Translations under genes and position numbers: made by a program | The notes under the pieces: model-generated | Database searches by the model: none | Seen by the model: only the letters and a program-made list of their open reading frames with translations | What the model was told of the DNA's origin: nothing | Shown here: positions 1 to 33,815 of the stretch, piece by piece | Layout of the letters: every line of letters begins with the position of its first letter | Numbering within the stretch: the stretch's first letter is position 1 | IMG/VR virus record: IMGVR_UViG_3300036790_000178 | Location: 8,343-72,342 of that record | Reading direction: 5' to 3' (one strand) | From: a virus | Length of the DNA stretch: 64,000 nucleotides

Positions 1-1297
1 CGTAGAAGCCATGCGTCATCGACGCGCCGCCGATATCGTGGATGTACGGCAGGAAGATCCGCACGCCCACACCATCCCCAGCCGCGCCTCCTGCCCGCAT
101 GTCCGCCGTGAATGGCCACGTGCTCTCGCAATTGAATGACCTGAAATAGTGAGCGCTGTTGTCGATGTTGAACAGCCACGAGGCAATCGTATTTGTGCCG
201 GGCGCGACCCTGATGTTGGAGAACTGCATGTAGTGATTCATGCCGGCAGAACCGTCATAAGGGTTAGTTATCCCAGCAGACGATCCGCTCTCCCCGGCAT
301 CCGCAGAGTCCTGGCCGAAGTAGAAAGCGCTACCCGTGTACTCGGGAAGCTCAGGCGCATTTCCGCCAATTGGTCCCGGATATCCGCATATCTTGAGCGA
401 TCCGACGTTGACGCCAGCAACACCACCAGGAGCGATGATGGTCGGAGCGCATCCCGTTACCCTCTGTCCCTGAACCCATGCGGTCGAATTTGGTCCCGTT
501 GTGGCATGCGCCCATGTGCCGCTATTTCTGACGACGCACATGATGCCGGCCTGAGCGCCACTACTCTTGCCGCCAGATACCGTGAGGTTGCTGGCTAGAA
601 CCCCGAGCATGTTGTTGCCGCTCGCGCCGCTTTGCGCGTACTGCTTAGGCGATGCGAACGTGCCGGGATTCGACTCACTTCCGTTGTTCTCGTCTATGTA
701 GACGATGGGCGCCTGAGTCAGGACGATCTGAATCGGATTCCCGCGAAGGTCATTGGTGTTCGACGCCACGCCATTGACCACGACACTCAGCGCGAGAGGT
801 GTCCCAATGGCGAGCGCTTGCACGGCGGCAGAGCCGATCTGGACGCCCAATATCCAGATATCGGGAAACGGCCAGCCCACTGCTCGCGCGGCGACGGCGC
901 AAGGCGCTTGGATGAGGTAGCGATAGTTGGCGATTTCTACGCCGTCGATAAACATGCGCGCGCCCGCTGGCGTACCCATGTTTGCGACGGATCCGGGATT
1001 GGTGAGCGCAACCGCCAGATACCCGCCTGCCCCACCCTCCCCTTCGTAATTGGCCGCCGTCATCCCGGTCGGAATGAAGCTGCTAGACGGCGCTACACCC
1101 GTCGGAACGTCGAGGAAGTCCTGGGCTATGACCAGCGGCGCGCCAGAGCCGCCGCCGGAAACCTGGATGACCTGGCCGCCCTCAACCAATACCACGCCGC
1201 CGGGAGCAACAATCTGACCCCTGGCAGACGGGGGCAGTAAAAGACCCGCAAAGGTCGCCCCAACGCCAGCAAGAGCTGTTCTGCGCGTGACGATCAT
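1..1297 (-). CDS. Tat-signal protein with DUF1565-like motif and right-handed beta-helix (tailspike/depolymerase-like); 3'-truncated by window edge
   Basis: Manual translation from ATG 1297 is open to position 1. It reads MIVTRRTALAGVGATFAGLLLPPSARG, later YIDENNGSESNPGTFASPKQY, then YIHDIGGASMTHGFY. Not in the ORF track because the stop lies outside the window. Confidence 0.75.
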   Translation of the reverse strand, partial: MIVTRRTALAGVGATFAGLLLPPSARGQIVAPGGVVLVEGGQVIQVSGGGSGAPLVIAQDFLDVPTGVAPSSSFIPTGMTAANYEGEGGAGGYLAVALTNPGSVANMGTPAGARMFIDGVEIANYRYLIQAPCAVAARAVGWPFPDIWILGVQIGSAAVQALAIGTPLALSVVVNGVASNTNDLRGNPIQIVLTQAPIVYIDENNGSESNPGTFASPKQYAQSGASGNNMLGVLASNLTVSGGKSSGAQAGIMCVVRNSGTWAHATTGPNSTAWVQGQRVTGCAPTIIAPGGVAGVNVGSLKICGYPGPIGGNAPELPEYTGSAFYFGQDSADAGESGSSAGITNPYDGSAGMNHYMQFSNIRVAPGTNTIASWLFNIDNSAHYFRSFNCESTWPFTADMRAGGAAGDGVGVRIFLPYIHDIGGASMTHGFY

Positions 1298-1298
1298 G

Positions 1299-2033
1299 TC
1301 AATTCACCGGGTGACCGTTGCTGATGAGTGGATGGCCGTTTGAGAGAACTGACGACAGGGTCGGAGCGCTCGGGGCTTGAACCGACAGCGCCGCATGGGA
1401 GCCAATCAATCCGCCGCTCTCAGTCCAGCCGATCGTCACCGTTGAAGCCCCTGCCGCGTATTGTCCTGCGCAGTAGATGTTTCCGTTTGTCGAGCTATTC
1501 GCGAGCGTGCCAGACGGTGTGTAAACAAAGTCGTAAGGACGGCTCCCGACGAAGTCAACTACTAGATCGCCCGTTGCGCTCGTGACAGTGAGAGACGGGT
1601 TGACTGCGTTTGTCACTTGGGATGCGAACGTTCCGGTCCGCATGACCTGCGTAGTCGAGCCGCCCGTCACGCTGATGGAGACACCATTGGCGTAGCTGGC
1701 CGACCCGAGCGTGACCAGAACGGTCTGCGCGCCGGTTGCAGGATTCGCCAGCTCGTAGACGTACATCACATCGCCGCTGGCGTTCGCTGCACTCTGCCCG
1801 TCGAGAGTCATGGTCACGCCGCCGTACTTGACGCTGGTCGGCGCGGCTAGCCCGTAGACTCCCACGATGATTCCGGTAGGAGTTCCTACCGGGGTGTTCG
1901 TCCAGCTTCCGGTGGTGGCGTTATTGACGATCCCTTCGCCAGAAGCACTGTAAGCGACGCTCGCGAACGCCAGAGGACAGGCAAGGAGAGCGGCGCAGAG
2001 AAGCGCCGCTATCAGTCTCAGTGATCGGAACAT
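1299..2033 (-). CDS. Sec-signal beta-rich fibre-associated protein
   Basis: Leader MFRSLRLIAALLCAALLACPLAFA-S; T/S/G-rich beta strands; 1-3 nt from both neighbours. Confidence 0.75.
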   Translation of the reverse strand: MFRSLRLIAALLCAALLACPLAFASVAYSASGEGIVNNATTGSWTNTPVGTPTGIIVGVYGLAAPTSVKYGGVTMTLDGQSAANASGDVMYVYELANPATGAQTVLVTLGSASYANGVSISVTGGSTTQVMRTGTFASQVTNAVNPSLTVTSATGDLVVDFVGSRPYDFVYTPSGTLANSSTNGNIYCAGQYAAGASTVTIGWTESGGLIGSHAALSVQAPSAPTLSSVLSNGHPLISNGHPVN

Positions 2034-2036
2034 GCT

Positions 2037-5000
2037 TTAGCTCCCCATGCACGAGAAGCCGACGACATCTCCCGACGTGATGGTGCCGCCGAGCGTCGCG
2101 CTACTCGCCCCCCACGTGGTTTCGCTCACCGTGTTCGCGGGAGTGGTCTTGTCCACGGCCTTGCAGATCCATGTGCTATTGGGAGCCGTGGGCAGATTCA
2201 CGACGATGCTGGAAGCGCCCGTCGTCCCGGAGCATACAAAGCTGCCAACCGTGGTTCCGCCGACCAGGGTTGTCGTCGTGGCGCATGCCCCGCTACCGCT
2301 GCTCAGGGTGAACGTCGTGCCCTCATCGAGCAGGTACGTGACCGTCGTGGCCGCCGTGAGCTGACCGCTGGAGTTGGTCGAGACCACAGCCGCACTCGTC
2401 GGCACCGCCCCGCCGTTCACCTTGACCACCGTAGTAGCCACGGTCCCGGATGTGGTGGTGACGTCGCCGGTGAGCGCCGGCATCTGAGCCGCCGCCAGAG
2501 TCCCGCTATTGACCTCCGTGGCGGCGATCGACTTATTCGTCAGGGTCTGGGTTGCGGCGAGCTCCACCACCGTGTCGGTCGCGGCCGGGAATGTGGCCGT
2601 GAAGTTCGACGTGCTGGCATTCGCGGTGGCAAGAGCGGTCGTCCCGGTCGAGGAGCCCTTGATGAGAATGTCGCTAGCGGGGAAGGTCTGCGCGGCCGAC
2701 CAGGTATTCGGCACCGCAAGCGCCGCGAGAGACGCCGATGCCGGTATCGTGGTCCCGTTGACGCTGGTCACATTCGGGAGCGACGTCAGGCTCGACGCGA
2801 CGGCATTGGCGGTGATCGTGCCCGTTCCCGTCGTCCCAAGGGTGGCTCCCGTCCCGACCAGCATGGCGGCCGTCGTATTGGTCGCAGAGGTCAGCGCCGA
2901 GAACGCTGTAGCGCCAGTGCTGCTCGCCGTGATCGTGACACCGCTGCCAGAGTTCGCGAGCGTAATGTTCGTGCCGGCGATGAGATTGAGCGCGGTCTGG
3001 CTGGCATTGTTCGTGCCGTTGGTCTGAAGCGTGATCCCACCACCGCAATCAGCCCCGAAGCCCGATACCACTCCCGAGGTGCTGACGTGCAAGCACTGGG
3101 TCGAGCCGGTGATCCCGGAGAGAGTCAGGCCCGAGAGCGTCTGAGTCGCGCTGAAGGTCTGCGCGAGATTCAGTTCTGCCACCGTGCCGGTGTTCGCCGG
3201 GAACGTCCCGGTGAAATTGCTGGCTCCGGAATCCGAAGTGGTCAGCGTCACGAAGCCGGTCGAGGAGCCGAGGAGATCAAGATTCCCAGTCGTCGTGAGG
3301 CTCGCCCCGCTCCCAACCACCATCGCCGCCGATGTGTTCGTGGCCCCTGAGATCGCGCTGAACGCAAGAGTCCCAGTCGTGGTGCAGCCGATCAATTGTC
3401 CCGAGCTGTTGCTCGCGAGACAAGTCTGGCTGGCGGGCACGGTGGCGCCGTTCACCTCATTCGAGTTGAGCGTGCCGGTGCCCGTGGGTCCCAAGCTCGC
3501 CCCGCTCCCGACAAGCATTGCGGCTGCGGTATTGGTGCCACCGGTGAGAGCGCTAAATGCGGAACTGCCCCCGCCGCCGCATCCCGTGCAGCTCGCGACC
3601 GTGAGGTTTCCCGACGCATCGAGGGATGCGACGGAGGCGCCCCCGTTGACGTGGAAGTCAAGGAAATATCCCGCGAAGCCGCTGTTGCCGTTGAACCCCA
3701 TGAAGGTCCCAGCCGTGTTCCACGTCGTGACATTGGTCCCCGCCGAGAACATGAAGAGGGGAACCGTGGTCGTGCCGGTGCCACCTGAGAAAGGCGTGCC
3801 GAGGAACGCCGTTGCCGTCGAGTTCGACGCGCCGTTCTTGGTATTGTTGAAGCCCTGCGAGAAGACCTGGCCGGCGCTGAACGTCTGCCCCAGATTGAGC
3901 TCGGCGATGGTGCCCGTGTTCGCCGGCAGGCTGGCCGTCACGGAACCAAGCGCACCGGTGACCGGCGCAATGGTCACCGTGCCCGAAGTCGCATTGCCGA
4001 GCGCAACCGAACCCGCGGTACCCGAGGCGCCGAGCGACAGCGCGCCCGCGGTGATCGATGCATTCGTGGTGCCGGAGACCGCGGTGCCCGTGGAGCCGTA
4101 GAAGGCGAGCTGGCCCAGCGTGCCGGAGTTGACCGTGCCGGAGCCGGTAGTCGGTGTCTGCCAGGTCGCGGCCGTGGTGCTCGTGGCCGTGAGAACCTGG
4201 CCAGTCGTCGGGGCCGTGGCGGAGCTGACTGCAACCGTCGTCGTGGCGGATTTCAGCCCGTTCGCAACTGTGGCAGTGCCAGCGGTTAGGCTGGCGGCAG
4301 TGCCGGTGAGGTTCGTCGCAACGCCTGAGGCGGGCGTGCCGAGCGCGCCGCCATTCACGGCGAATGAACCCGCAGTGCCTACGTTGACGGCGAGCGCCGT
4401 CGCGACACTCGTTCCAAGCCCACTGAGTCCTGAAAGCGGAGCGCTGGTGGCCGCGATGGTTCCAGAACCTGTGGCACCGAGGCTCGAGCCCGTGCCGACA
4501 AGCATCGCCGCAGTCGTGTTCGTTCCGCTCGTGAGAGCAGAAAATGCGCTGCTGCCGCCACCACTACAGGCGCCCCATGTTCCCAAGCCGGCCGTCGTCG
4601 TCGAGAGTTCGCACTGGCCGGCAGTCGTGGTCGTCGGGGAGGTCAGGATCGGCTGACCATTCGCCTGCGTGTTCGCAGCCGAGCCGGCGACGATGTTCGT
4701 GACGCTCCCTGAATTCGTGCTGCCGTAGGTGGCGCTGACGGCCGCAGCCGAGGTCGTTCCTGTTACATGCTCGAACGTCGCGGCACTGGCACTTCCGCCG
4801 ATCTGCCGATATGAATTGCCGTTGCGATCATCGCGACAGTCAAAGGGAAGCGAGAAAGACGACCAGCCCGTGCAATGCGGCGGCGCGCCATCACTGGCGG
4901 CGGCCGTGCTCGTCGAGAAGAGGTTGTCCTCGTAGACGCCGCTCGTGAAACTGCTGGGGCCATGGAACTGCCAAACATACGAATTGGCGTTGGCCGTGGT

Positions 5001-6599
5001 CGCGGTGAAGCTCGCTCCAGCGCAGTCATCCGAGTCGGTGCAACTGAAATCGAAGTCGTTGTCGTTTTGGATGTAGGTCTGGACGGCCGACAGAAATTCG
5101 ATTTGGCACGCCACATAGCCAGGGAAGCCCGCGACTCCGCAAGTGCCGGGATCGCTCGCGTCGCGCTGTACCTGTAGCCAATCCGTGGGGTTCGCTAAGG
5201 AATCATCCAGCATCGCTCCATGCAATGTGGTGACGCCGCTCGTGGTGGTGCTATAGAGCTTCCAGTTCTTCTGATTGGCTGCTGCGGAAGGGTCCGACAG
5301 CGAGAACGGCAAATCGACACCGATCACGGGATTGCCGGAGATCGCATTCGCCGTGACGGTGCCCGTGCCCGTGGGGCCGAGACTTGCCCCGGTACCGACA
5401 AGCATCGCGGCGGTGGTGTTTGTCGCTCCCGTGAGCGCGCTAAACGCGGTCGCGCCCGTCGAGCTCGCCGTGATCGTCTGATTCGGCCATGTCCCTGTGA
5501 TCGTGACGTTCGTGCCGGCGACGAGGCCTGCGCCGGTTACCGCAGCTCCCAGGTTCGTGGCGGAGGGCGTTCCCAGGAAGGTGGCCACTCCGGTGCCCAG
5601 TCCGGACAAGCCACCCACCGGAAGGCCGGTGGCGTTGGTGAGTGTGCCGGAGGCGGGAGTGCCGAGCGCGATGCCGGACGAAAGAGCGTTGGCGGTAATC
5701 GTGCCGCTACCAGTCGGGCCGAGACTTGCGCCAGTGCCCACGAGCATGGCCGCTGTGGTGTTCGTGCTGCTCGTCAACGCGCTGAAGGCGGAACTGCCAC
5801 CCGCGCCGCAGCCGGCTCCGGAGTCGACGAGATTCCCGGTCGTGGTGCTCCACTGCGCGCAGTGACCTGAGACGAGTGAGCCGCTGAAAGTCGTGAGAGT
5901 CGACGGCAGGTCGGACAGGGTGAGCGAGAGCGGCGCAAGGGTTCCGGCCGTACCAGTTCCGATGACCTGGTGGGCGGTGAGTCCCGTGGCGCCGGCGAGC
6001 GTGAGGGTGCCTGAGCTCGTGACCGGGGAGCCAGAGACGGTGAGCCAGGAGGGAGCCGAGAGGCCGACACTCGTGACCGAGCCGCCGCCGCTCAGGGAAT
6101 GGCAGGCACCATCAGAGCCCAAGAGGATCGTATTGCCGCTGCAGCCGGAGAAGAGCGCGCCGATATCGCTCGCGGCCGCGGTGGTCAATCCCGAGCCGGT
6201 ACCCTTGATGACGCCCGAGAGAGTCGTCGAAACGGTGAGCGCGCCGCTACTCGTGACAGGCGAGCCCGCAACCGTGAAGCCCGCCGGCATGACGAGGCCG
6301 ACACTCGTGACGGTGCCAGCGCTCGAGCACGCCTGCCAGACGAGCGCGGTCCCGTTGTTCGCGAGGCAGTAGCCGTTGACGAGCGGTGAAGGCAGAAGCG
6401 AGAGGACCGCGTCCGAATCCACGAAGTACGTGACGATCTGCGCCGGCAGGATGTCGACCGTGATGCCGCTCTGATCGGAGAGCATCCGCTCGCTGCCGGT
6501 CAGTGGAGATGCGGTCGGGTAGCCGCCCACTTCTTGGGTCGCGGCTCCCGCGGTCGAGAAGACGGCGACGAGCGCGAGGATCGCGAGGAGTCTTTTCAT
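2037..6599 (-). CDS. 1520-aa fibre-like repeat protein with Sec signal peptide and paired cysteines
   Basis: Leader MKRLLAILALVAVFSTAGA-A; fibre-type repeats GTVTSVGL..P..TV.GSPVTSSG and LGTPASG..TN.TG; 24 Cys in 12 neighbouring pairs. Confidence 0.85.
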   Translation of the reverse strand: MKRLLAILALVAVFSTAGAATQEVGGYPTASPLTGSERMLSDQSGITVDILPAQIVTYFVDSDAVLSLLPSPLVNGYCLANNGTALVWQACSSAGTVTSVGLVMPAGFTVAGSPVTSSGALTVSTTLSGVIKGTGSGLTTAAASDIGALFSGCSGNTILLGSDGACHSLSGGGSVTSVGLSAPSWLTVSGSPVTSSGTLTLAGATGLTAHQVIGTGTAGTLAPLSLTLSDLPSTLTTFSGSLVSGHCAQWSTTTGNLVDSGAGCGAGGSSAFSALTSSTNTTAAMLVGTGASLGPTGSGTITANALSSGIALGTPASGTLTNATGLPVGGLSGLGTGVATFLGTPSATNLGAAVTGAGLVAGTNVTITGTWPNQTITASSTGATAFSALTGATNTTAAMLVGTGASLGPTGTGTVTANAISGNPVIGVDLPFSLSDPSAAANQKNWKLYSTTTSGVTTLHGAMLDDSLANPTDWLQVQRDASDPGTCGVAGFPGYVACQIEFLSAVQTYIQNDNDFDFSCTDSDDCAGASFTATTANANSYVWQFHGPSSFTSGVYEDNLFSTSTAAASDGAPPHCTGWSSFSLPFDCRDDRNGNSYRQIGGSASAATFEHVTGTTSAAAVSATYGSTNSGSVTNIVAGSAANTQANGQPILTSPTTTTAGQCELSTTTAGLGTWGACSGGGSSAFSALTSGTNTTAAMLVGTGSSLGATGSGTIAATSAPLSGLSGLGTSVATALAVNVGTAGSFAVNGGALGTPASGVATNLTGTAASLTAGTATVANGLKSATTTVAVSSATAPTTGQVLTATSTTAATWQTPTTGSGTVNSGTLGQLAFYGSTGTAVSGTTNASITAGALSLGASGTAGSVALGNATSGTVTIAPVTGALGSVTASLPANTGTIAELNLGQTFSAGQVFSQGFNNTKNGASNSTATAFLGTPFSGGTGTTTVPLFMFSAGTNVTTWNTAGTFMGFNGNSGFAGYFLDFHVNGGASVASLDASGNLTVASCTGCGGGGSSAFSALTGGTNTAAAMLVGSGASLGPTGTGTLNSNEVNGATVPASQTCLASNSSGQLIGCTTTGTLAFSAISGATNTSAAMVVGSGASLTTTGNLDLLGSSTGFVTLTTSDSGASNFTGTFPANTGTVAELNLAQTFSATQTLSGLTLSGITGSTQCLHVSTSGVVSGFGADCGGGITLQTNGTNNASQTALNLIAGTNITLANSGSGVTITASSTGATAFSALTSATNTTAAMLVGTGATLGTTGTGTITANAVASSLTSLPNVTSVNGTTIPASASLAALAVPNTWSAAQTFPASDILIKGSSTGTTALATANASTSNFTATFPAATDTVVELAATQTLTNKSIAATEVNSGTLAAAQMPALTGDVTTTSGTVATTVVKVNGGAVPTSAAVVSTNSSGQLTAATTVTYLLDEGTTFTLSSGSGACATTTTLVGGTTVGSFVCSGTTGASSIVVNLPTAPNSTWICKAVDKTTPANTVSETTWGASSATLGGTITSGDVVGFSCMGS
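2800..5800 (-). repeat. Six dispersed copies of an approximately 35-aa coding repeat AFSALT..TNTTAAMLVGTGASLG.TG.GTI
   Basis: Six copies counted in the translation (one shortened); coordinates approximate. Confidence 0.9.
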
Positions 6600-6740
6600 T
6601 TCAGGCTACCTGCATGAAGGCAAAGGGAATCCCTGCGGCTTGGCGCCGCATGTCTGATTCGCGCGAGGGAATGGGTTTGCTAACCGCTCGGCATTAAGCC
6701 GCAGTTAGCAATTGACAATCTGAAGGACGTTAAAAGGTCG

Positions 6741-8234: not shown

Positions 8235-9013
8235 GCGGCCTCCTGCACTTCGATCTGCTGTGCCGCGGCGAGGAGGCCCTGCAGGTCGAAGCCGTTCGGC
8301 GCCGTGCCGCCGGCGCGCACGAAGTCTGGCCACGCCTCGCAGTGAGCCTCCTGGAGGAAGTCGCTATTGCCGATGAGGGACCAGGAGACCGGCTGCAGCT
8401 TTCCCCAGGTCACGACGTACGCGAAGTCGGCGTCGTACTTGACGATCGGGACGTCGTGGCCGCCCTCGACGTTGCCAGCGACGCTCGTCCAGGGCTGGCC
8501 GGCGCCGAAGGTCTGCATCATCTGGTCCGTAACGACGATGCCGAGCCGGCATGACCCGAAGAGCTGCACCGCCCACTTGAGATGCGCGAGGTTGGTCGGG
8601 TCTACGGGGCCGCTGGCTGCTGACTTCTGGCCGCACAGTCCCGTAGTAGTGAGGTACTGGCACATGCCGGTCTCATCGCATCCCTGGTCCGTCGATGAGT
8701 TGCCGGGCACGTAGCCGCCCACCGCTTCATAGAGCGCGAGGATGTCCTGCTGCGTCGGGATGAGGATCGCGCCGGCGTTGGCCGTGCGCAGCATGAGGCC
8801 GTGCCCACTGTCCTCGCAGACGCAGTCCCCGAGCTGATCGTTCAGCCAGCAGATCCAGCCCGCGGCGCTCTGCTTCATCACTGCCGACACATAGTCGTCG
8901 CTCGCGGCGGGCGGGGCGCCGAGCGTGGCGAGCGCCTGATGCATGGCGATGCCGAGGCGCATCGTGCGCCGGGTATGGACCGCCGGCCGGCGGCCGGTGC
9001 GCAGCGCCATCAT
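8231..9013 (-). CDS. Papain-fold cysteine peptidase-like protein
   Basis: LNDQLGDCVC, GGHDVPIVKYD and YVVTWG motifs give a Cys/His dyad pattern. Confidence 0.65.
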   Translation of the reverse strand: MMALRTGRRPAVHTRRTMRLGIAMHQALATLGAPPAASDDYVSAVMKQSAAGWICWLNDQLGDCVCEDSGHGLMLRTANAGAILIPTQQDILALYEAVGGYVPGNSSTDQGCDETGMCQYLTTTGLCGQKSAASGPVDPTNLAHLKWAVQLFGSCRLGIVVTDQMMQTFGAGQPWTSVAGNVEGGHDVPIVKYDADFAYVVTWGKLQPVSWSLIGNSDFLQEAHCEAWPDFVRAGGTAPNGFDLQGLLAAAQQIEVQEAA

Positions 9014-9234
9014 TTGCGCTTCCCGTGATCATGCCCATCACCCTGGACGCACTCCCCGCCGCCACCAGTGGGGTTGCCCTGCGCGTCGTATGTGGTGACG
9101 GACTTCCAGTGTCCGCCGCCTGACTCGCACTGCTCCTGCGGTGTGGGCGCCGGGATGGCGTCGAGGATCGCGCCGACGGTCGCGCACGCGCTCAGCAACG
9201 CTGCGGCCGCCACACAGGCAAGTCTTGCTTTCAT
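9010..9234 (-). CDS. Small lipoprotein (possible o-spanin-like)
   Basis: MKARLACVAAAALLSA-C lipobox; further Cys pair; located in the lysis cassette. Confidence 0.65.
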   Translation of the reverse strand: MKARLACVAAAALLSACATVGAILDAIPAPTPQEQCESGGGHWKSVTTYDAQGNPTGGGGECVQGDGHDHGKRK

Positions 9235-9303
9235 GGACGCTCCAAATGCAGCGCGCCCCGCCAAAGGCGCGGGGCGCGGCATATCCGGGACGGTGGGGAC
9301 GGG

Positions 9304-9696
9304 TTACTTCTGGGCGGCAGCCTTCTTCGCCGCGCCGCTCGTCAGGTAGGCGCCCGCCGAGGACGCCATTCCGCTTCCGACGTCAGCGAGTGCCTGCTGA
9401 AGCGAGCCGCCGAGCACGGGCGTGTTCTCCACGACATTGAGTTCGACCTGAAGATACGGCTGGCCGGTCGACCAGAGATCCTCGGCAACCTTCTGCAGGC
9501 CCGGATCCTTGATGCCGGCGATCGCCGAGGCGACCTGCGCGTTCGCCCCGGTGATATCACCCTTGCCGGCGGCGCTGAAGAAGGCCGCGACCTGCGAGGC
9601 CGTGGTGGCGCGGGCCTGCTTGTCCGCATCGGACGAACCCTGGCTGATGACGGCCGCGGTGACAGCTTCGGCGGCGAGGTAGGGAATGGAGCTCAT
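9304..9696 (-). CDS. Hypothetical helical protein in lysis cassette
   Basis: ATGA-coupled to the upstream gene; phage-typical codon usage. Confidence 0.65.
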   Translation of the reverse strand: MSSIPYLAAEAVTAAVISQGSSDADKQARATTASQVAAFFSAAGKGDITGANAQVASAIAGIKDPGLQKVAEDLWSTGQPYLQVELNVVENTPVLGGSLQQALADVGSGMASSAGAYLTSGAAKKAAAQK

Positions 9697-9923
9697 GGTT
9701 TCACCTGTTGCGCCGGGGTGGCCGGCTGGGTAGGGTTTACGGGGCTGGGGATGTGGAACACGGAAGTGACGACGTGCATCAGGATGGTCCCCAAGCCGCC
9801 CAACACCATCTCGATGATGGCGCGGGCATCCTGGGAGAGCGTCACGGGATGCAGGATGAGGAGGTAGATGAGGCCGCCCATCACCGCCGTCAGGAAAAAG
9901 CAGTACGCGACACGGGCGTTCAT
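9693..9923 (-). CDS. Two-TM membrane protein, holin candidate
   Basis: 76 aa with two hydrophobic segments, near the endolysin. Confidence 0.55.
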   Translation of the reverse strand: MNARVAYCFFLTAVMGGLIYLLILHPVTLSQDARAIIEMVLGGLGTILMHVVTSVFHIPSPVNPTQPATPAQQVKP

Positions 9924-10297
9924 AGGTTCACCTTGAGAGTGAGGTTCGTGGGCGCGCCCGGAACTTCCGAGAAGGTCCCGCAGGCTTCCGGCGAATGAGG
10001 CGATTCGAATCCGTTGACGACAGACGTCACGAAGCCGCAGACGGTCTCGCCCGCGGTGTATCCAGAGGTGATTGCGCTCGTGAAGCGGATCCCGGTCTGT
10101 ACTGGCGCCGCGGCCTCACTTCCCGGGCCGGCAGTGCCGACGTACAGGTTGTAGGTGATCGTCGCGGTGCTTGGGATAGCTGTACCGTCGGTGAACTGTG
10201 TCGGCGCGCTGTAGGCCCAATTGACCGTTCCGCTGGTCTGTGCGGAAGCGACGCCCACGACGAGCATCGCGGCGAGCGCGATGAGATAGCGAATCAT
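9920..10297 (-). CDS. Secreted FN3-like single-domain protein
   Basis: Leader MIRYLIALAAMLVVGVASA-Q; W..PT..TDG....YNLY, VTSV.NG.ES..S and VPGAPTNL motifs; one Cys pair. Confidence 0.7.
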   Translation of the reverse strand: MIRYLIALAAMLVVGVASAQTSGTVNWAYSAPTQFTDGTAIPSTATITYNLYVGTAGPGSEAAAPVQTGIRFTSAITSGYTAGETVCGFVTSVVNGFESPHSPEACGTFSEVPGAPTNLTLKVNL

Positions 10298-10377
10298 GGG
10301 GAAGGTCCTCTTCGGGAAATTATGGCGACCGGTTGGCATGATCCCGGCTCCGCTGCTGGCGCGGCGAGCGAGCTGCA

Positions 10378-10734
10378 TCAGAATGGCTCCAGCTGCACGG
10401 TCTTGCCCGTGAGTTGGTGAGTGCAGTCGGAAAGGAACTGAATCTGGCCGCCGGTCACGAATGAATGGCAGCGAGTGTCGGCCGCAGGAAACGTAGGCGC
10501 CGGCTTCGGGCAACCTTCCGCGTGCCACGCATCGAACTGGCGCCTACCGTCTTCGGTGAAATCGCGCCCGGTGACAAGCACGCTCGGCGTGAAGCTCGGT
10601 CGGTCATAGTCGCCATTGAAGCCCCACGGCTCGGGAGCGGGCGCCACGCGCACGGCATGCATCTGCCTGCAGCCCGGGCACCAGAAACCCAGCTTGCCGC
10701 CCTCGATGGTTCGGAGGACGCCGCGCGCGCTCAC
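10378..10734 (-). CDS. DUF6527-like Zn-binding protein
   Basis: FWCPGC...H, WGFNGD...PSFTPSVLV and CHSFVT.GQIQFLSDCTH motifs. Confidence 0.75.
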   Translation of the reverse strand: MSARGVLRTIEGGKLGFWCPGCRQMHAVRVAPAPEPWGFNGDYDRPSFTPSVLVTGRDFTEDGRRQFDAWHAEGCPKPAPTFPAADTRCHSFVTGGQIQFLSDCTHQLTGKTVQLEPF

Positions 10735-11219
10735 GACAGCGCCGCGAGCGACGCGGCCATCTGCCGCCGCTCCCAGCCGGTGCCGTCACGCGACCAGGTT
10801 GCGGACTGATGGAGCCGATCCATGCAGGCTCCGAAGTACCACTCGAGGAGCGCTGCCGGCGTGGGGAGCGTCGCGGCATGAATGGTCTGCGGCCCGATGC
10901 CGCCATCGACGTGCACGCCGAGCGCGCGCTGTAGCGCCATCACCGCCTGCACTGGCCCGTCGAGCACGGAGAACGCGAGCAATGGCATGGCGAGATAGGA
11001 CGGCAGATCCGACGCCCCCTTCGGCCAGTACTGTTCCGCGAGCATCTGAGCGGCTGCGGCCTGCGTGAGCGCCTGTAGCTTCCCGGCAAGCTCGGGGTGA
11101 TAGCGCACAGCCAGACCCCATGCGGTCTCCCCGCCCGGATCCTTGGGATCGAAGTGGTACGGCCCCTCACGGCCCGTCACCCAAAGCGAGGCCTCCTGGA
11201 GAGCGTCTGCTGAGATCAT
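10731..11219 (-). CDS. Endolysin, glycoside hydrolase family 108 with PG-binding segment
   Basis: EGPY..DPKDPGGETAWG; LQRALGVHVDGGIGPQT; GWERR. Confidence 0.85.
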   Translation of the reverse strand: MISADALQEASLWVTGREGPYHFDPKDPGGETAWGLAVRYHPELAGKLQALTQAAAAQMLAEQYWPKGASDLPSYLAMPLLAFSVLDGPVQAVMALQRALGVHVDGGIGPQTIHAATLPTPAALLEWYFGACMDRLHQSATWSRDGTGWERRQMAASLAALS

Positions 11220-11644
11220 TGGGGCGAGCGCTCCTGCCCGCAGTTGATCGCCTGCGGATACGGATGGCCCGCCGTGTTCTCGTAGCGCTCGAGCAGCTGC
11301 GAGAGCGACGCCTCGTAGAGACCGCGGGACTCGGAGTTCTGCGTCTCGCTACAGCGGCCGGCGTCCTGCAGGATCTGGGAGCTCAAGTCCTCGAGGTAGT
11401 GGCGGCCCTCGTTCTTCTCATCAGCTCGCATCTGCGCCGTGATCGGCGCCACGGCCGCTATGATCGAGGGGCCCATCTGGGCCTTGAGGGCCTGCACATC
11501 GCTTTCCTTCGCGAAGTTGTGCGTGCTGTAGTAGATCCAGCCCGTGAGTCCCATGAGAGCCGTGCAGGAGACGATGCGCACGCGGTATCGCTCCGGAAGG
11601 AGCTTGTCCAGCTGCGCGAAAATCACGCCAAGCATGTCGCTCAT
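11216..11644 (-). CDS. Single-TM membrane protein preceding the endolysin (holin/antiholin candidate)
   Basis: One TM segment plus a Cys-containing soluble tail; ATGA overlaps at both ends. Confidence 0.55.
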   Translation of the reverse strand: MSDMLGVIFAQLDKLLPERYRVRIVSCTALMGLTGWIYYSTHNFAKESDVQALKAQMGPSIIAAVAPITAQMRADEKNEGRHYLEDLSSQILQDAGRCSETQNSESRGLYEASLSQLLERYENTAGHPYPQAINCGQERSPQ

Positions 11645-12726
11645 GCCGTCCTCCGCCACATCCGCACGACCCGATAGGGCTGCAAGTTGTTGTGAGGCGT
11701 AGCGGGTTCAGTCCCAGTGAGCCCTTCCCCGCTAAGCGTCGTCTTGTTCGCGTAGAGGCAGGCATCATTGTCGTTGTCGGTGGTGTTCGATCCGACGTTG
11801 TTATTGAGTGCTCCGATCCCTACGTACTGGGTCGCGCCACGCTGCGCCAAGATGCTGGACTTCTCTGGATAGTAGAAATCCTGATAGTTGAGCGGCGGCA
11901 CCTCGGCCGCGACGAGCTGGTGCGTATCCTCGCCTCCGGTCTGCCCGGTAGACTCGAAGTTCGGATCGCTCGGCAGCCGGCCGACGAGCACGACGCCTTG
12001 AACTTCGACCCAGGTCTGCCAAGTGAACACGGCCCCGGGGCTCGTCGTGTCGGTCTCCCACAGCACATACGCGCCGATGGGATAGATGAGATTGGTGAGC
12101 GCCTGCTCGATCCCGGTGATGTTCGTCGGCAGTTCCGTGATCTGAAATTCGGTGCCGTCCCAGACGAATGCAGCGATGCCACCGGCGAGAAGCGCCCCCA
12201 CCGCAGGTGCAGCGCCGCCAGGCAGGACTGCCGATGCCGCGCCGGCACCATCATTGAACGTGACGGTGCCTGAAGTATTGGTATGCGCGATCTTGACGCG
12301 AAGCGGCGCTCCGACCTTGTGCGCGGTCAGCGCGGGCGTGAAGTTCGCGACATAGGCATTCGCCGAGCCGGTATCAGCGGCATAGTTGCCAGCCTGCGCC
12401 TGCACATCGTCCGCTTGCGCCGCGGCACCGAGATCAGCCGCGGTCGGCAGGAGGTTGAGAAAGTCCCCCGCCGCCCATGCCAACGCGCTCGTTCCCTCCT
12501 GAGCGCGCGTGATGGTCATCGTATCCGTCGAGCGCGCGGTAACGAGCACGACCTCTCGAATATTCGAATTCGAGGCCGCCTGGAACGTTGCCGTGAACGT
12601 CTGGACCCCGGTGAGCGTCGGGAATAGCGCGCCCTCGCCCGCATTCACCGAAACGCTGGTTGCGCTATTGCTGATCGATGCCGCGAGAGTTGCGGTCGCG
12701 TTGTTCGAATACTGGCGTACAGCCAT
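11641..12726 (-). CDS. Tail fibre protein
   Basis: Fibre N-terminus NNATATLA...REVVLVTARSTDTMTITRAQEGT; collar-like IYPIGAY...TGGEDTHQL...HNNLQPY..VRMWRRTA. Confidence 0.85.
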   Translation of the reverse strand: MAVRQYSNNATATLAASISNSATSVSVNAGEGALFPTLTGVQTFTATFQAASNSNIREVVLVTARSTDTMTITRAQEGTSALAWAAGDFLNLLPTAADLGAAAQADDVQAQAGNYAADTGSANAYVANFTPALTAHKVGAPLRVKIAHTNTSGTVTFNDGAGAASAVLPGGAAPAVGALLAGGIAAFVWDGTEFQITELPTNITGIEQALTNLIYPIGAYVLWETDTTSPGAVFTWQTWVEVQGVVLVGRLPSDPNFESTGQTGGEDTHQLVAAEVPPLNYQDFYYPEKSSILAQRGATQYVGIGALNNNVGSNTTDNDNDACLYANKTTLSGEGLTGTEPATPHNNLQPYRVVRMWRRTA

Positions 12727-12729
12727 TGC

Positions 12730-13062
12730 CTACTCCGGTCTCCAAGTGAGCAATTCCCGCCAATCGGCAGGGCGCACGTACATGCGATTGAAAATCACGG
12801 TGTTATCTTCCATGGCGGTGATGCGGTGCGGCAGAAGACTATTGAACTCGGGCTCTTCCGCTTGCGAGTTAGCATCGAGAATCAGCCACTGCGGCTCCTG
12901 CTCGCCTGCCGGGCAGATCTCGACCAGGACTTGTCCTTTCAGGCAGAGACAGGCGTGGCGACGCTCGATCGAATGCGCGTGCACGCCGAACCCCTCGCCT
13001 GCTTTCTCCAGCACGTACTCGCAGCCGAACTCGCCTTCGAGCTCGGTGTATCGTTCGCGCAT
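12730..13062 (-). CDS. Small cupin-fold protein
   Basis: HAH....H...CLKG and HRITAMEDNT cupin-like motifs. Confidence 0.6.
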   Translation of the reverse strand: MRERYTELEGEFGCEYVLEKAGEGFGVHAHSIERRHACLCLKGQVLVEICPAGEQEPQWLILDANSQAEEPEFNSLLPHRITAMEDNTVIFNRMYVRPADWRELLTWRPE

Positions 13063-15209
13063 CAGGTGAAGCGGATCGAGACGAGGCCTGCGCCGCCGTT
13101 CTGGCCGGGCTGGCTCCCCTGGAAGCCGGCCTCACCGCCGTACCCGTTCGCGTTGCCGCCCGTGTTGGAGTAGACGCCGTGCTGAGTGACTCCACCCGCG
13201 CCGGTGGTGCGAAATGGCGCTCCCGTGCCACCAGTGACGTTGGCTTGGTTGCCGCCCGAGGCCGTGCCGCCAGTACCGCCCGCCGAGTTGTTCCCCGGCT
13301 GGCCGCCGTTCGCCGTGAGCGTGACGCCGGCGACGACTACGACCGTGGCGGTGCCCGCCGTACCGACGCCACCATTGCCGAAGCCTTCCGCTCCGGCCGC
13401 GCCCACCGCGCTGATGGTGATGGACTCGCCACCGGTCACGGCGACCTGGTGCCTGACATAGCCGGCACCGCCGCCGCCGGCCCCTGGCTGGGCGGTGCAG
13501 AGTGAGCCCGTACCGCCCTGGCCACCGCCGCCCCCGCCCCACTCCTCGATGACGGCGTTCGAATATCCGTTCGGGACGGTGACGGTCTGTGCCGTGGCGT
13601 AAGTGAAGGTCTCAGGCGGCAGGTAGGTAAAGGAAACGCTGACGGTGACCTGGGCCTGCTGCCCCAAGGCATCGGTAACGGTGCACTGCGCGTTGCCGGT
13701 ATCGGTGTTCCCGGCCGTCATGCCGGAGGCGGTGAGGTTCGTCGTGGCCGAGGTCGGCGATCCGATGGCGTAGCTGGCGCCATCCGTGTGCGAGGTCCAG
13801 GTGAACGTCCAGTTGTAGGTATACGGGGCCTCCCCGCCCGAGACGGTGACCGTCGTCGATGCGGTGGTCATCGGGATCGTGCTCGAGGAGACCGGAAGCG
13901 ACATCGGGCTTGCCGAGGCGCTTGGCGCCGTCGCGCGCGCCACCGATACCGCGCAAGTTGCCGTGGCCTGCTGACCGAAGGAATCCGTGACGGTGCAGAG
14001 GAGTGTCCCGGATTCCGTGGCGCCCGGTGAGAGTCCAGAACCCGTGATTGTGGTCGAAGAGCCGGCGGGCGAATTGATCGTAAGCCCCGTACCGCCCGAC
14101 TGCCACGTATTGGCGTAGATGAAGGGTCCGGCACCGCCCGTCACGGTGGCCGTGGTCGCGCCCGTCGTCTCGGTCGCAGTCGATCCCGTCACCGAGAGCG
14201 TGGTCGGGGAAAGCGCGACGCTCGGCGCCGAGACGTTGCTGATGGTCACGATGACAAAGGCGTACGCGGTATGCGTGCCGTCGGAAACCGTGCATTTCGC
14301 CGTGCCGGTAAGCGTGGTGCCGCGCGTCATCCCGGTCGCGGTGAAGGCCGTATCGGCCGCGGAAGGCGAGTCGATCGTGATCCCGGTGCCGCCTGAATCC
14401 CACGTCCAGGTGTAAGTGAGAGCACCTGAACCACCTACGGCCGAGACGCTCGCCGTGCCGGTCGAGAGGGTCGTCGCGATGCCCGTAACCGATTCGGTCG
14501 GCGGGCTCGCGGTCGCGACCAGCATCGTCACGATGTTGAACGCGTAGGTGTACTGGACCGGAAGATCAAGCACCCCGCCCAAGAAGGCGGACTGCAGGAT
14601 CGGCAGTATGTTCGGTGCCAACTGCACGAGCGAAGAAATGGCGGCGCCGTTGACCGTCACGGTGAGGACGTCACTTGATACGGTGACACTCACCGCCTGG
14701 GTGTTCTCAGGGCCTATGACGAAGTCTGGCGAGAGCGGATTGGGATCGAGGCCGTCCGTTCCGATGAGGAAGCGCATGATCCTTCGCTTCAGCCACTTCA
14801 TGCAGAAGCGCTTGCCGTCACCCTTGTAGTAATTCCAGGTGAGGATGCGCTTCAGCACATCATCGGATATCGAGTAGTACGTGACCGACGGGGCGACGAA
14901 AGAGTTGAGCGTTGCGGTGTTCAGCTCCTGCGTATTGAGCGGGCCCGCCGCAGCGCTCGCCGACTGCACCAAGCTCGTCCGCTGCGTGCCGTAAAGACCG
15001 TTCAGCACCCAATCAAGGAGCGGTCCGGAAAGGCCGGGATAGAACGGCAGATTGGCCGAGTTGAACCAATCTACATACGTCTGCGTCGCTGCGTTATAGG
15101 CGGCGAAGAACGCCTGAATATCATCATCGTCGGCGTACTGTTTGTAGGGATATGCCGGGATCGTCGCAGTCAGGGTCGGCTGCGGCGAAAGAAGCTGAGA
15201 ATCGCTCAT
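13062..15209 (-). CDS. Baseplate wedge-like protein fused to three Ig-like repeats and a Gly-rich tip
   Basis: N-terminal IPAYPYKQY.DD..IQAFF...KRILTWNYYKGDGKRF; three copies of YTW..SGG.G.TI.SP....T....CTV.D; C-terminal WGGGGGG Gly-rich domain. Confidence 0.75.
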   Translation of the reverse strand: MSDSQLLSPQPTLTATIPAYPYKQYADDDDIQAFFAAYNAATQTYVDWFNSANLPFYPGLSGPLLDWVLNGLYGTQRTSLVQSASAAAGPLNTQELNTATLNSFVAPSVTYYSISDDVLKRILTWNYYKGDGKRFCMKWLKRRIMRFLIGTDGLDPNPLSPDFVIGPENTQAVSVTVSSDVLTVTVNGAAISSLVQLAPNILPILQSAFLGGVLDLPVQYTYAFNIVTMLVATASPPTESVTGIATTLSTGTASVSAVGGSGALTYTWTWDSGGTGITIDSPSAADTAFTATGMTRGTTLTGTAKCTVSDGTHTAYAFVIVTISNVSAPSVALSPTTLSVTGSTATETTGATTATVTGGAGPFIYANTWQSGGTGLTINSPAGSSTTITGSGLSPGATESGTLLCTVTDSFGQQATATCAVSVARATAPSASASPMSLPVSSSTIPMTTASTTVTVSGGEAPYTYNWTFTWTSHTDGASYAIGSPTSATTNLTASGMTAGNTDTGNAQCTVTDALGQQAQVTVSVSFTYLPPETFTYATAQTVTVPNGYSNAVIEEWGGGGGGQGGTGSLCTAQPGAGGGGAGYVRHQVAVTGGESITISAVGAAGAEGFGNGGVGTAGTATVVVVAGVTLTANGGQPGNNSAGGTGGTASGGNQANVTGGTGAPFRTTGAGGVTQHGVYSNTGGNANGYGGEAGFQGSQPGQNGGAGLVSIRFT

Positions 15210-27710: not shown

Positions 27711-28730
27711 TCAGTGAGGCATCGACAGCAGGAACACGGTCTCCGGACGGACCGGCCAGCCGCAGGTCGCACGGATCTCGTAGAGCGTATCCACGGCGCC
27801 CAGCGCGAGGGGTACCGTGATCTCGAGGGGCGCCGCCATGTCGGCGTACTGGAAGGAGCAGCCCGCGAGATTCGGTTGCAGCTTCGCGAAAGCGTTGGTG
27901 TCCCACTCCGGCCCGTTCGGCTGCTCCACTTCCGGCATGTGGAGGATCACCATGTCCGCCCCGCCAGCACCCTGACCGATCAGGGTGTCGTCATAGCAGA
28001 ACTCGATGACGTCACCCTCGCAGGTCTTCGCCACTTCCTGCACGACCTGCGCTGTAGTGGCGCTGCCAGCGCCGATGCGCTGGTAGGAAGTGACTTGCAC
28101 GATGTTGACGAGCTCGAGCTGGCCGAGGATCCGCTGAGGTCCGAGGAAGACGAGCCGATGCGGCTTGCCCAACTGGTATGTCGCAGTCTTGAGGTTCAGG
28201 ATCTGCTGCAGCAGCCATATCGACATCTGGCCGTTGTCGTAGTTCGAAACGGTGGTTGCCCCGAACGTATCTGGCGGCAGCGTCACGGCCGTCCCGCCAC
28301 CATTCAGAAACCCCTCGCCGTTGCCGGCATTGACGCCGTAGAGCTCGAGATTGCGCAGCGTCTGGAATATGCCCTCATGGTTCGCGAGGCGGTAGCCTTC
28401 CGCGATGTTGACGCCCCAGCGGCTCATGTTCGCCGCGTCGTGATGATCCCACTCCGCATGCGAGCGGATCCGGTAAGTCGGCGTCGAGATGTATTTCGGG
28501 ACGAGCGTGGCGCCCGGGAGCAGGTTGCCCGCGCCCTGGTTCACGTTCGTGCGGGCTCGGAAGCCGAGTGTGCGCATGTAGACGTACAGGTCCTCCGGAT
28601 CCAGCATGATCCGCGGCTTGCCGTCCGCGACCAACCGCAGCGCCTGGGACGCCTGGTTGATCTGCATGAGCACCCCGGGCTCGATGCGCGAGGGGTGGAC
28701 CTGTGCCCAGGAAGTACCGAGAGTTGCCAT
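27711..28730 (-). CDS. Major capsid protein
   Basis: 339 aa after scaffold and decoration genes; LYGVNAGNGEGFLN and RATCGWPVRPE; strong codon bias. Confidence 0.75.
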   Translation of the reverse strand: MATLGTSWAQVHPSRIEPGVLMQINQASQALRLVADGKPRIMLDPEDLYVYMRTLGFRARTNVNQGAGNLLPGATLVPKYISTPTYRIRSHAEWDHHDAANMSRWGVNIAEGYRLANHEGIFQTLRNLELYGVNAGNGEGFLNGGGTAVTLPPDTFGATTVSNYDNGQMSIWLLQQILNLKTATYQLGKPHRLVFLGPQRILGQLELVNIVQVTSYQRIGAGSATTAQVVQEVAKTCEGDVIEFCYDDTLIGQGAGGADMVILHMPEVEQPNGPEWDTNAFAKLQPNLAGCSFQYADMAAPLEITVPLALGAVDTLYEIRATCGWPVRPETVFLLSMPH

Positions 28731-28748
28731 GTTGCTGTAGCTCCGAAA

Positions 28749-29381
28749 TTAGATCTGAAGGACCACGACGGAGCCGGCCTGATTCCAGGTGGCTTGTCCT
28801 GCCCCGGGGTTGTTCGGCACCACAATCCAGGAGTTGCCGATCTGCACGTCGATGATCTTCGCGTTGCCGTTGCTGGGACCGGGGATCGCGCCCGCATTGG
28901 CGCCCGAGTTGGTGAAGGGGATCACCACCTGGTTGGTGTAGTCCCAGGACAACTGCACGTTGTCGAGGCCGTTGAGCAGCGCGGCGGCATTGGCAGAGGA
29001 GATCGGAAGGGCGATGCAGGCCCCGGAGCCGAACTCGTAGAAGCTCATCCCCATGCCGGGCGAGGCCAGCGGGACGGGCGACTGCGGGGTCTGCACGGGG
29101 GCGGCCGACTGGTCCCACACGGCGAAACCGGTGAGATTCGCAATGGCCGTTGCGATCGCGAGCTGCGGGCCGAGCATCGGCGAGGCTGCCGCCTGCACGC
29201 TCGCGCTGACGCCGATGCCGCCGTAGACGAGGCCGGTGACGGCCGCGGCGATGAAGCCTGCGCGCAGCTTGTAGCGGGAGGCGGGATCGGGGTACGCGGC
29301 GCCCGCGATGTAGCCGTCGGTCGAGACGCCGAAAGTCCCGCTGGCGAAAGTGGTCGGCAGCGGGTTCAAGGTGATGGACAT
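28749..29381 (-). CDS. Capsid cement/decoration protein
   Basis: GYIAGAAYPDPASRYKL motif; lies between scaffold and MCP. Confidence 0.65.
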   Translation of the reverse strand: MSITLNPLPTTFASGTFGVSTDGYIAGAAYPDPASRYKLRAGFIAAAVTGLVYGGIGVSASVQAAASPMLGPQLAIATAIANLTGFAVWDQSAAPVQTPQSPVPLASPGMGMSFYEFGSGACIALPISSANAAALLNGLDNVQLSWDYTNQVVIPFTNSGANAGAIPGPSNGNAKIIDVQIGNSWIVVPNNPGAGQATWNQAGSVVVLQI

Positions 29382-29411
29382 GTGATTCTGGCTCCTGGGG
29401 TGGGGGTGAGA

Positions 29412-30194
29412 TCAGTGCGAGCGGAAGTCGCGGTTGATCTTCCCAAACTTGGTTGCGCCGCCCATAAACCGGCTCCACGTGACGGCCGGATCGCCGAACC
29501 ATTTGGTAATGGTGTGACCGGACTCACTTCGCGTGACCTGCTTGCGAAGCGGGCCGCCGACCGTGATGTTGGCGCTCGAGGCCTCGACCGCATCGTTGAC
29601 GATCGTCTCCTCGATGACCGAGAACGCCGCGGAGTCGTTGACCAACACGCCCAGGTTCGATTCCTTGTAGACCTTGCTGTGCGGCTTGATCTTGCCGAGC
29701 AGGCGCACGCGGTAGTCGCTCAGCGTCTCCCCATTCAGTGCGTGCGGCGCCGGCCCGTAGTTCCAGGCGTGATACGCCGCATCGGCTCGCATCTGCACCT
29801 CGGCGAAGCGGCCCTTGTCCTCATCCGACAAAGAGGCGGGACGGGTGCGCTCGAGCTCGGAGATGCGCTGCAGTACCTCGGCGGGAATGGCGCGGGAAGC
29901 AGCATCGGCCTTCTCCTTCTCCTTGCGCGCCTCCTCTTCGGCATCCGCGCGAGCCTTGTCCGCTTTCTCCTTCTCGGCCTTCTCCGACGCCTCGGCATCG
30001 GCGCGGGCCTTGTCGGCCCGATCCTTCTCCTCCTTCTCCTTGCGCTCATCCGCATCTTTGCGGACGGAGTCAACGCACGCCTTCATGTCGGCGGCGTCGG
30101 CGCGATCCTTCTTGTGCTCGGTCTCGATCGAATCGATGCGAGCGTTGATGCTATCGAGCTTCGTCAGGACCTTGTCCAGCTTGTCTTCGTCCAC
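29412..30194 (-). CDS. Capsid scaffolding protein
   Basis: Charged coiled coil with ADKARADAE repeats; PLNGETL.DYR.RLL-like motif. Confidence 0.7.
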   Translation of the reverse strand: MDEDKLDKVLTKLDSINARIDSIETEHKKDRADAADMKACVDSVRKDADERKEKEEKDRADKARADAEASEKAEKEKADKARADAEEEARKEKEKADAASRAIPAEVLQRISELERTRPASLSDEDKGRFAEVQMRADAAYHAWNYGPAPHALNGETLSDYRVRLLGKIKPHSKVYKESNLGVLVNDSAAFSVIEETIVNDAVEASSANITVGGPLRKQVTRSESGHTITKWFGDPAVTWSRFMGGATKFGKINRDFRSH

Positions 30195-33808: not shown

Positions 33809-33815
33809 GAGGCCT

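Follow-up and report, generated by a model that had tools for sequence, protein, structure and literature searches.

The late strand of a soil prophage ends in a compact set of genes for phage-appendage-type proteins that carry export leaders, and an analysis of this set is presented here. The window (the whole stretch of DNA analysed, 64,000 nucleotides, nt) covers bases 8343-72342 of the 72,342-base virus record IMGVR_UViG_3300036790_000178, whose source is a soil metagenome. Its late strand ends with five consecutive minus-strand genes, the products of which, of 1520, 244, 680, 113 and 741 amino acids (aa), are in this order a long fibre, a lectin-like protein, a probable immunoglobulin (Ig)/beta-helix enzyme, a small Lcl_C lectin-like protein and an enzyme-like protein. 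Leaders of the general secretory (Sec) or twin-arginine translocation (Tat) type are present on four of the five genes. Assembly of tailed phages is, in the textbook view, wholly cytoplasmic; judged from their sequences, the host-recognition proteins encoded by four of these five genes probably mature outside the cytoplasm. That the block forms one translationally coupled set of phage-appendage-type proteins docking on particles at lysis is the reading developed below, and it is held tentatively, at slightly less than even confidence. The members of the block are as follows, with window coordinates unless another sequence is named, L001 being the contig that extends beyond the window.

2037-6599, minus strand: 1520-aa fibre-like protein, Sec leader MKRLLAILALVAVFSTAGA
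1299-2033, minus strand: 244-aa protein, Sec leader MFRSLRLIAALLCAALLACPLAFA
1..1297 (open reading frame 2-1297, open at the edge), minus strand: first 432 codons of the third protein, Tat-like leader MIVTRRTALAGVGATFAGLLLPPSARG
L001 7597-9639, minus strand of the window: the third protein complete, 680 aa, read beyond the window
After the 680-aa gene, beyond the window, same strand: 113-aa Lcl_C/DUF1566 protein (Pfam expect value, E, 1e-15), leaderless
After the 113-aa gene, beyond the window, same strand: 741-aa protein starting MPNRRKFLLSAGASLAAVGTLGTSLAQQ (MPNRRKFLL), with an RRKFL Tat-type leader

A first-pass annotation of this DNA had reported three consecutive genes, 1-3 nt apart, with Sec, Sec and Tat-type leaders. 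As an observation this holds as a whole: minus-strand genes with Sec, Sec and Tat-like leaders are found at the window start, separated by gaps of 3 and 1 nt, and the two further intergenic gaps of the five-gene block measure -4 and -1 nt. Leaders were called with a home-made heuristic, which looks for a charged n-region, 8-16 uncharged hydrophobic residues and small residues at -3/-1; against its threshold of 23, the 1520-aa and 244-aa proteins score 38.0 and 41.5, respectively. The heuristic is passed by 7 of the 75 open reading frames (ORFs) of the contig, four of them within the five-gene block, and this clustering of four leaders in five consecutive genes was matched in 818 of 100,000 gene-order shuffles. 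The remaining three positive ORFs (a host membrane protein, an acyltransferase and a holin-like protein) are all membrane proteins. Public gene calls retain the leaders of the 1520-, 244- and 741-aa proteins (P0001, P0124 and P0274). From the sequences, the Sec proteins are very probably exported and oxidatively folded, export of the 741-aa protein is likely, and that of the 680-aa protein is moderately likely.

In base composition (G+C 0.61-0.66) the block is close to the remainder of the window, and it shares the strand of the late genes; the frequency of promoter-like and terminator-like sites stays near that of shuffled sequence. Similarity searches returned little at the level of whole proteins. 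The 1520-, 244-, 680- and 741-aa proteins have no Pfam or PHROG match and, in PDB sequence searches, no hit below E 0.1. Among 50,697 phage records, tblastn found nothing similar to the 1520-, 244- or 680-aa proteins, and megablast with window positions 1-20000 was likewise negative. No paralogues of the exported proteins were found elsewhere in the prophage.

The strongest evidence for export lies in the cysteines (Cys) of the 1520-aa fibre and its relatives. In the fibre itself, Sec cleavage is predicted after residue 19, a conserved N-terminal module (YPTASPLTGSERMLSDQ) begins at residue 27, the repeat AFSALTxxTNTxAAMLVGxGAxL occurs in six copies, and 24 Cys fall into 12 close pairs with a pair spacing of 3-38 residues. 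Relatives were collected by a word-indexed search (518 at E ≤ 1e-3 among 8000 scored candidates), and the best 120 of the 518 were analysed. The leader heuristic is passed by 85 of these 120 listed homologues; among the remaining 35, inspection by eye shows uncharged or lipoprotein-like leaders in a few. Leader-bearing homologues contain a median of 16 Cys and seven close Cys pairs, versus four Cys and no close pairs in leaderless ones, and the two groups differ in their Cys share with a Mann-Whitney p of 1.5e-13. Among listed homologues with at least two Cys, an even number is found in 82 of 84 with a leader versus 20 of 27 without. Even counts at such a rate are what disulfide bonding predicts, and for this reason export of the fibre is regarded as very probably real; the oxidative folding that had been proposed for this protein is supported by the same counts.

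A motif Y/L-P-x4-8-G-x-E...Q is found 5-15 (median 7) residues past the predicted cleavage site in 21 of the 85 leader-bearing listed homologues, and at residue 9-10 in two leaderless homologues, P0077 and P0097; a control stretch, fibre residues 201-290, was matched in 2 of the 120. The leader thus sits directly before an N-terminal module that is also present in two leaderless homologues. Over 13 proteins (78 pairs), this 44-residue module has a mean identity of 60.5%, versus 12.8% of residues identical in the best local match for the remainder of the same proteins. Such a pattern of conserved head and variable body is, at the sequence level, that of the anchor domains of receptor-binding proteins, and the module may accordingly be a particle-binding one. 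The fibre family is taken to descend from phage fibres, because its members carry phage fibre domains or match tail-fibre or virion PHROGs: Peptidase_S74 is found in P0053 and P0104, Mtd_N or DUF5907 in some other relatives, P0097 matches the tail-fibre family phrog_11393 (E 1.3e-11), P0070 and P0096 match tail-fibre PHROGs, and matches to virion PHROGs also occur. In 3 of 301 sampled genomes, the first 150 fibre residues have weak matches.

In the 244-aa protein, a Sec leader (AFA|S) is followed by two beta-sandwich subdomains with the family motif WTHTPVG. Relatives at E ≤ 1e-3 numbered 729 in an exhaustive search with HMMER, and the best 150 of the 729 were analysed. The leader heuristic is passed by 33 of these 150 listed homologues (3 of the 33 with twin arginines), so that the Sec leaders announced for the 1520- and 244-aa proteins are both real and conserved within their families. 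An M-x-V-A-F-D-like N-terminus is found in 70 of the 150. Leaderless members mostly begin at the mature start of the query, and in listed relatives of up to 300 aa the W-T-H-T motif starts at a median position of 59 with a leader and of 21 without one. The leader (window 1962-2033) also contains a lipobox-like L-L-A-C at residues 16-19, five residues before AFA|S. The earlier statement that no lipobox is present therefore needs amendment, and from its sequence the protein could conceivably be a lipoprotein; cleavage after AFA is the better fit, given that the alignments of many leaderless homologues start at query residue 25.

The AlphaFold2 (AF2) model of the 244-aa protein has a predicted local distance difference test (pLDDT) score of 89.5. 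Compared with predicted viral structures, it gives 88 matches at E ≤ 1e-3, with template-modelling (TM) scores of up to 0.74, and many of the matched proteins bear the name minor tail protein and come from Mycobacterium or Gordonia phages. Solved structures show only common likenesses to beta-sandwiches and carbohydrate-binding modules (CBM), with Z 6-8 and a best Z of 7.9. The query itself matches 0 PHROG families at E ≤ 0.01; a leader-bearing relative in locus L015 matches phrog_2106 (E 4.3e-12) and a second minor-tail-protein profile (E 3e-9). Across 43 viral loci, domains of this type stand alone or head proteins of 400-1600 aa. The modelled fold is that of a phage minor tail protein, and together with the fibre domains described above these matches uphold the appendage ancestry that had been suggested for the two Sec proteins. 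The two also agree with the earlier statement that no autotransporter barrel is present: neither carries any Pfam family, and the 244-aa model consists of two beta-sandwiches.

After its Tat-like leader (TRRTAL...ARG|Q), the 680-aa protein probably has an Ig/TIG-like region, followed by what is probably a right-handed beta-helix. The Tat consensus is S/T-R-R-x-F-L-K before a mildly hydrophobic stretch, and T-R-R-T-A-L fits it only partly. The ATG lies 1 nt past the preceding stop, as at other junctions of the block, with GGTGA 7-11 nt upstream; these points favour this start, and with translation from V35 about 100 nt would lie idle. No Pfam family was found at E ≤ 0.1, and the AF2 model, computed on a three-row alignment, is unusable (pLDDT 29). 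The nearest neighbours by language model are the TIG/Disaggr_assoc and Beta_helix clusters (score 0.90, 173 shared features), from which the protein is predicted to be a probable Ig plus beta-helix enzyme. The first-pass labels for this protein fare less well: 'DUF1565-like' was a reading of a short motif that no Pfam or PHROG match accompanies, and the beta-helix fold is unconfirmed, with the language-model neighbours as its one lead.

The 741-aa protein has an N-R-R-K-F-L-L sequence that fits the Tat motif, and the Pfam Rieske Tat-signal model scores it at E 0.032, which falls short of the cut-off of that model. The protein is present letter-for-letter from its RRKFL start in the ESM Atlas, where its structural neighbours are named cellulose-binding proteins (TM about 0.6). 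Among its eight homologues, P0276, P0277 and P0281 pass the heuristic for Sec leaders, and P0278 has an RR leader by eye. The leader of P0277 precedes the same kind of N-terminal motif as that of the fibre. This homologue has a MADQKISQMP start followed by a Sec-type leader and then by TGTKISQMPLAAPLTG; it reads as if the N-terminal motif of the fibre had been duplicated and a leader had been inserted after one of the copies.

In related loci, leaders behave as a property of the whole cluster, since neighbouring genes carry them where the 244-aa relative does. Leader-bearing same-strand neighbours number 9 of 14 where the 244-aa homologue has a leader (4 loci) versus 8 of 91 where it is leaderless (39 loci), a contrast with a Fisher p of 1.1e-5 that has to be read with the partial non-independence of the 43 loci (for example the duplicates L010 and L011). 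In seven related viral loci, the Cys count is even in 22 of 23 leader-bearing ORFs versus 20 of 42 other ORFs. The most telling locus is L058, which shares a syntenic head module with the prophage (portal 59% and major head protein 69.5% identical) and has, between its terminase and portal genes, an unbroken run of seven leader-bearing genes; two of the seven begin with the module of the 1520-aa fibre, one of them 60% identical over 52 residues. In L057, two leader-bearing fibres lie close behind a leaderless tail fibre gene, and clusters of three leader-bearing genes occur in L005 and L015, near an endolysin or integrase gene. From these loci it is concluded that the cassette moves within the late operons of related phages, and such mobility would suit a late role in the phage more than a moron expressed in the lysogen. 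The first-pass annotation had proposed to ask whether homologues keep the leaders and stay in late operons: the Sec leaders recur and the L058 and L057 clusters do lie in late operons; the 680-aa leader is not kept. As a separate observation, an 862-aa protein encoded just past a tape-measure-like gene (L026 3220-5808) has a strong leader by the heuristic and weak SPP1_Dit (E 4.9e-4) and Sipho_tail matches, so that a core tail-tip protein may carry a leader as well.

The setting of the block is that of an integrated prophage of about 71 kb, a size that follows from a 45-bp direct repeat bounding both ends, with one copy at contig positions 811-855 and the other within a tRNA-Ala(GGC) gene. The exported block occupies the region 4-14 kb from the far attachment (att) end, and one strand (minus) is used from the terminase through to the block. 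The features on which the argument draws are listed below.

62503-63645, plus strand: integrase (PHROG match)
63702-63775, minus strand: tRNA-Ala(GGC), carrying the 45-bp att repeat
34205-35779, minus strand: terminase large subunit (PHROG match)
32276-33808, minus strand: portal (PHROG match)
27711-28730, minus strand: major head protein, the link to relative L058; head and packaging genes 27711..35779 lie on this same late strand
19634-21214, minus strand: lytic tail protein (PHROG match)
15206-16426, minus strand: baseplate wedge subunit (PHROG match)
11641..15209, minus strand: ordinary fibre region (361, 110 and 715 aa), all leaderless
11641-12726, minus strand: 361-aa ordinary fibre (tail-fibre PHROGs, Gp10_C)
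13062-15209, minus strand: 715-aa ordinary fibre (phrog_8212, PKD-like repeats)
9010..11219, minus strand: lysis region (GH108 endolysin, DUF6527, holin-like and lipoprotein-like ORFs)
10731-11219, minus strand: GH108 endolysin
10378-10734, minus strand: DUF6527 protein
9693-9923, minus strand: holin-like two-helix protein of 76 aa, no family match
9010-9282, minus strand: lipoprotein-like ORF of 90 aa, lipobox-like LLSAC, no family match
6741-7349, minus strand: HNH endonuclease (phrog_3377, E 2e-51), between the lysis genes and the exported block
6600..6740, minus strand: spacer of 141 nt before the 1520-aa gene, with a 14-bp imperfect hairpin without U-run (z -1.9)
L001 3415-5044, plus strand: Acyl_transf_3 and hexapeptide acetyltransferase genes, converging on the exported block at the att end

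The ordinary fibres at 11641-12726 and 13062-15209 are leaderless by the same heuristic, as the first-pass annotation had stated. An idea of a 'Gp10-like socket' was dropped, the 361-aa fibre and the leaderless L057 fibre having no similarity by BLASTP (E 1.4). The placement of the block downstream of the lysis cassette is also right, with the correction that 260-aa and 178-aa ORFs, the HNH gene and the 141-nt spacer intervene. Within this spacer, an AGG stands 10-12 nt ahead of the ATG of the 1520-aa gene, and the spacer is a possible, putative transcript boundary or processing site. Past the block come the Acyl_transf_3 and hexapeptide acetyltransferase genes (both convergent), then RadC and the att repeat; as genes by which a prophage could alter surface glycans, the two transferases are typical candidates. 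Comparison with two soil DNA runs (X1 and X2) gave a source-like contig and, in X2, which belongs to another study, short contigs identical to the window at positions 713-4393 and 8936-12000, including parts of the exported genes, so that the same phage is present in a second sample. A host-flank protein has matches, at up to 42% identity, in 3 of the 301 genomes sampled from the phylum of G002 (an Acidobacteriota metagenome-assembled genome that includes L003).

Several smaller observations concern the rest of the map. In the lysis region, a 130-aa ORF and the 76-aa two-helix ORF upstream of the 90-aa ORF (9010-9923, minus strand) have a spanin/holin-like layout in which no family was matched. 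In a 202-aa ORF of the same region (window 9920-10300, minus strand), about 105 residues follow an internal start, MIRYLIALAAMLVVGVASAQ; the product starting with MIRYLIALAAMLVVGVASAQ looks like another small leader-bearing protein, located between the DUF6527 and holin-like genes. HNH endonuclease genes occur twice in the prophage, at window positions 6741-7349 and 53569-54120. A plus-strand ORF of 1263 aa (window 27714-31505, G+C at first codon positions 0.84) most probably represents antisense noise; opposite it, the minus strand encodes relatives of the L058 major head, protease-like and head-morphogenesis genes.

According to the docking scheme, the proteins of the block would be made late in infection and exported to the periplasm, where the Sec proteins would fold with disulfide bonds; the Tat proteins would be exported already folded. 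Contact of the exported set with the particle, which is built in the cytoplasm, would come about only once lysis has breached the envelope. Through its N-terminal module, the fibre would then dock and act as an additional, accessory receptor-binding fibre alongside the leaderless fibres of the phage, and the enzymes might dock likewise or stay free and clear surface polysaccharide.

A number of points weigh against this scheme. The leader calls rest on the home-made heuristic described above, and the neighbour contrast has the non-independence already given. The N-terminal module could serve trimer formation rather than docking, and no virion partner was identified. The third protein is a weak point: neither of its two homologues has the leader, so that the expected conservation of its Tat-type leader finds no support; its public gene call (P0121, 646 aa) starts at V35 and omits the leader; the G+C content at third codon positions is 0.56 for the 34 leader codons versus 0.70 for the remaining codons of the gene; and its mature part has 11 Cys, an odd number. 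As the phage already has leaderless fibres, the exported set would not be needed for infectivity. Finally, a position past lysis genes, HNH gene and hairpin spacer is moron-type, and the block adjoins two acetyltransferase genes typical of surface conversion. The interpretation of the first-pass annotation is thus upheld in part, for Sec export, oxidative folding of the fibre and appendage ancestry, and fails to find support in the conservation of the third leader and in the beta-helix fold.

The nearest competitor, judged unlikely from the sequences, accepts export and denies attachment: the block would encode free glycan-binding or -cutting proteins, made late and released at or before lysis, which strip or mask polysaccharide or receptors and let progeny escape the matrix and avoid sticking to debris. 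Such proteins would resemble the depolymerases behind plaque halos, but would reach the envelope through Sec and Tat. The wealth of lectin-like and enzyme-like parts in the block speaks for this explanation (CBM-like likenesses at Z 6-8, beta-helix/TIG neighbours, cellulose-binding neighbours at TM 0.6), as does the phage's own set of leaderless fibres, and free depolymerase is a known source of halos in the part of the review drawn on here (PMC6116005). Against it speak the 1520-aa fibre, which keeps the N-terminal module of leaderless fibre homologues, a part useless to a free enzyme, and P0277, a homologue of the 741-aa protein, which has such a module behind its leader. At the opposite end, the leaders might be unused, the proteins, whether part of the virion or not, remaining cytoplasmic and their hydrophobic N-termini being start-codon artefacts or membrane tethers. 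The public call of the 680-aa gene and its two leaderless homologues can be cited for this, but public calls keep the three other leaders, the 680-aa ATG follows the preceding stop by 1 nt with the V35 start leaving its gap of about 100 nt, and in the 120 listed fibre homologues the presence of a leader tracks Cys number and even counts, as an artefact would not; the idea is very improbable.

The remaining explanation, that of lysogenic conversion, concerns timing and target. As morons expressed by the prophage, the genes would decorate or remodel the host envelope through adhesins and matrix enzymes, or block superinfection through masking or destruction of the receptor, which on sequence grounds is rather improbable. 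Beyond the att-distal position past the lysis genes and hairpin spacer, and the Acyl_transf_3 and hexapeptide acetyltransferase neighbours, it can call on one weak fibre relative in a non-phage-looking stretch of an Acidobacteria contig (L002), and prophage genes with signal peptides have been read in this way in Porphyromonas gingivalis phages, according to the portion of the paper considered (PMC10367356). Yet the block shares strand and base composition with the late genes, its five genes are tightly coupled, the acetyltransferases, which are the more typical conversion genes, face the opposite way, and promoter-like or terminator-like sites do not exceed shuffle frequency. Moreover, the L058 cluster lies between terminase and portal, and that of L057 adjoins a leaderless tail fibre gene. 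The adhesin alternative offered by the first-pass annotation is therefore weakened by the co-orientation and coupling with the late strand and by the L058 arrangement.

Extended beyond this prophage, docking at lysis would amount to a two-compartment assembly in several soil lineages, in which heads, tails and baseplates arise in the cytoplasm and a Sec/Tat cassette of fibres, lectins and glycanases is hardened by the Dsb system in the periplasm and attached at lysis through the conserved module, here as an optional second fibre set that is mobile within the late operon; from the sequences, this wider proposal is possible rather than probable. If it is true, host secretion and Dsb systems become determinants of host range and defence, soil phage fibre genes will misfold in standard cytoplasmic expression, and signal peptides no longer separate moron from virion genes in prophage annotation. 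A leader grafted on an unchanged N-terminal module would also represent a testable evolutionary switch between two ways of making one part.

In the literature searched (titles and abstract starts), no Sec- or Tat-routed tail fibres of tailed phages are described. The coat proteins of filamentous phages are virion proteins inserted into or exported through the host membrane before assembly; those phages are non-tailed and assemble at the membrane without lysis, whereas terminase, portal, baseplate and leaderless fibres are present here. Prophages of P. gingivalis encode signal-peptide proteins of unknown function, which according to the authors may modify the host outer membrane (Matrishin et al. 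2023, PMC10367356); in the portion of that paper considered, and compared by description only, these proteins are not described as tail-fibre relatives or as disulfide-rich. Sec-exported and signal-arrest-release (SAR) endolysins and free depolymerases are counted among the envelope-breaching enzymes of phages, and Sec/SAR endolysins and spanins are likewise late phage proteins that use host Sec and wait in the envelope until lysis, as far as the relevant part of the review goes (PMC6116005); theirs are lysis proteins, in contrast to the fibre, lectin and glycanase types of the block. That part of the review makes no mention of exported fibres. Minor tail proteins of Mycobacterium and Gordonia phages (phrog_2106, phrog_553) and proteins of uncultured Caudovirales match the 244-aa model in fold (TM 0.74), and the 244-aa protein differs from them in its Sec leader, with no PHROG match of its own and no solved structure above Z 8. 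Another parallel is offered by leaderless modular receptor-binding proteins, whose architecture with an N-terminal anchor is described in the part of the source used (PMC8262889). A conserved N-terminal module with a variable rest, Peptidase_S74 or PHROG matches and a place in late operons are common to both; what sets the present fibre apart is a predicted cleavable Sec leader before the module and a mature part full of paired Cys.

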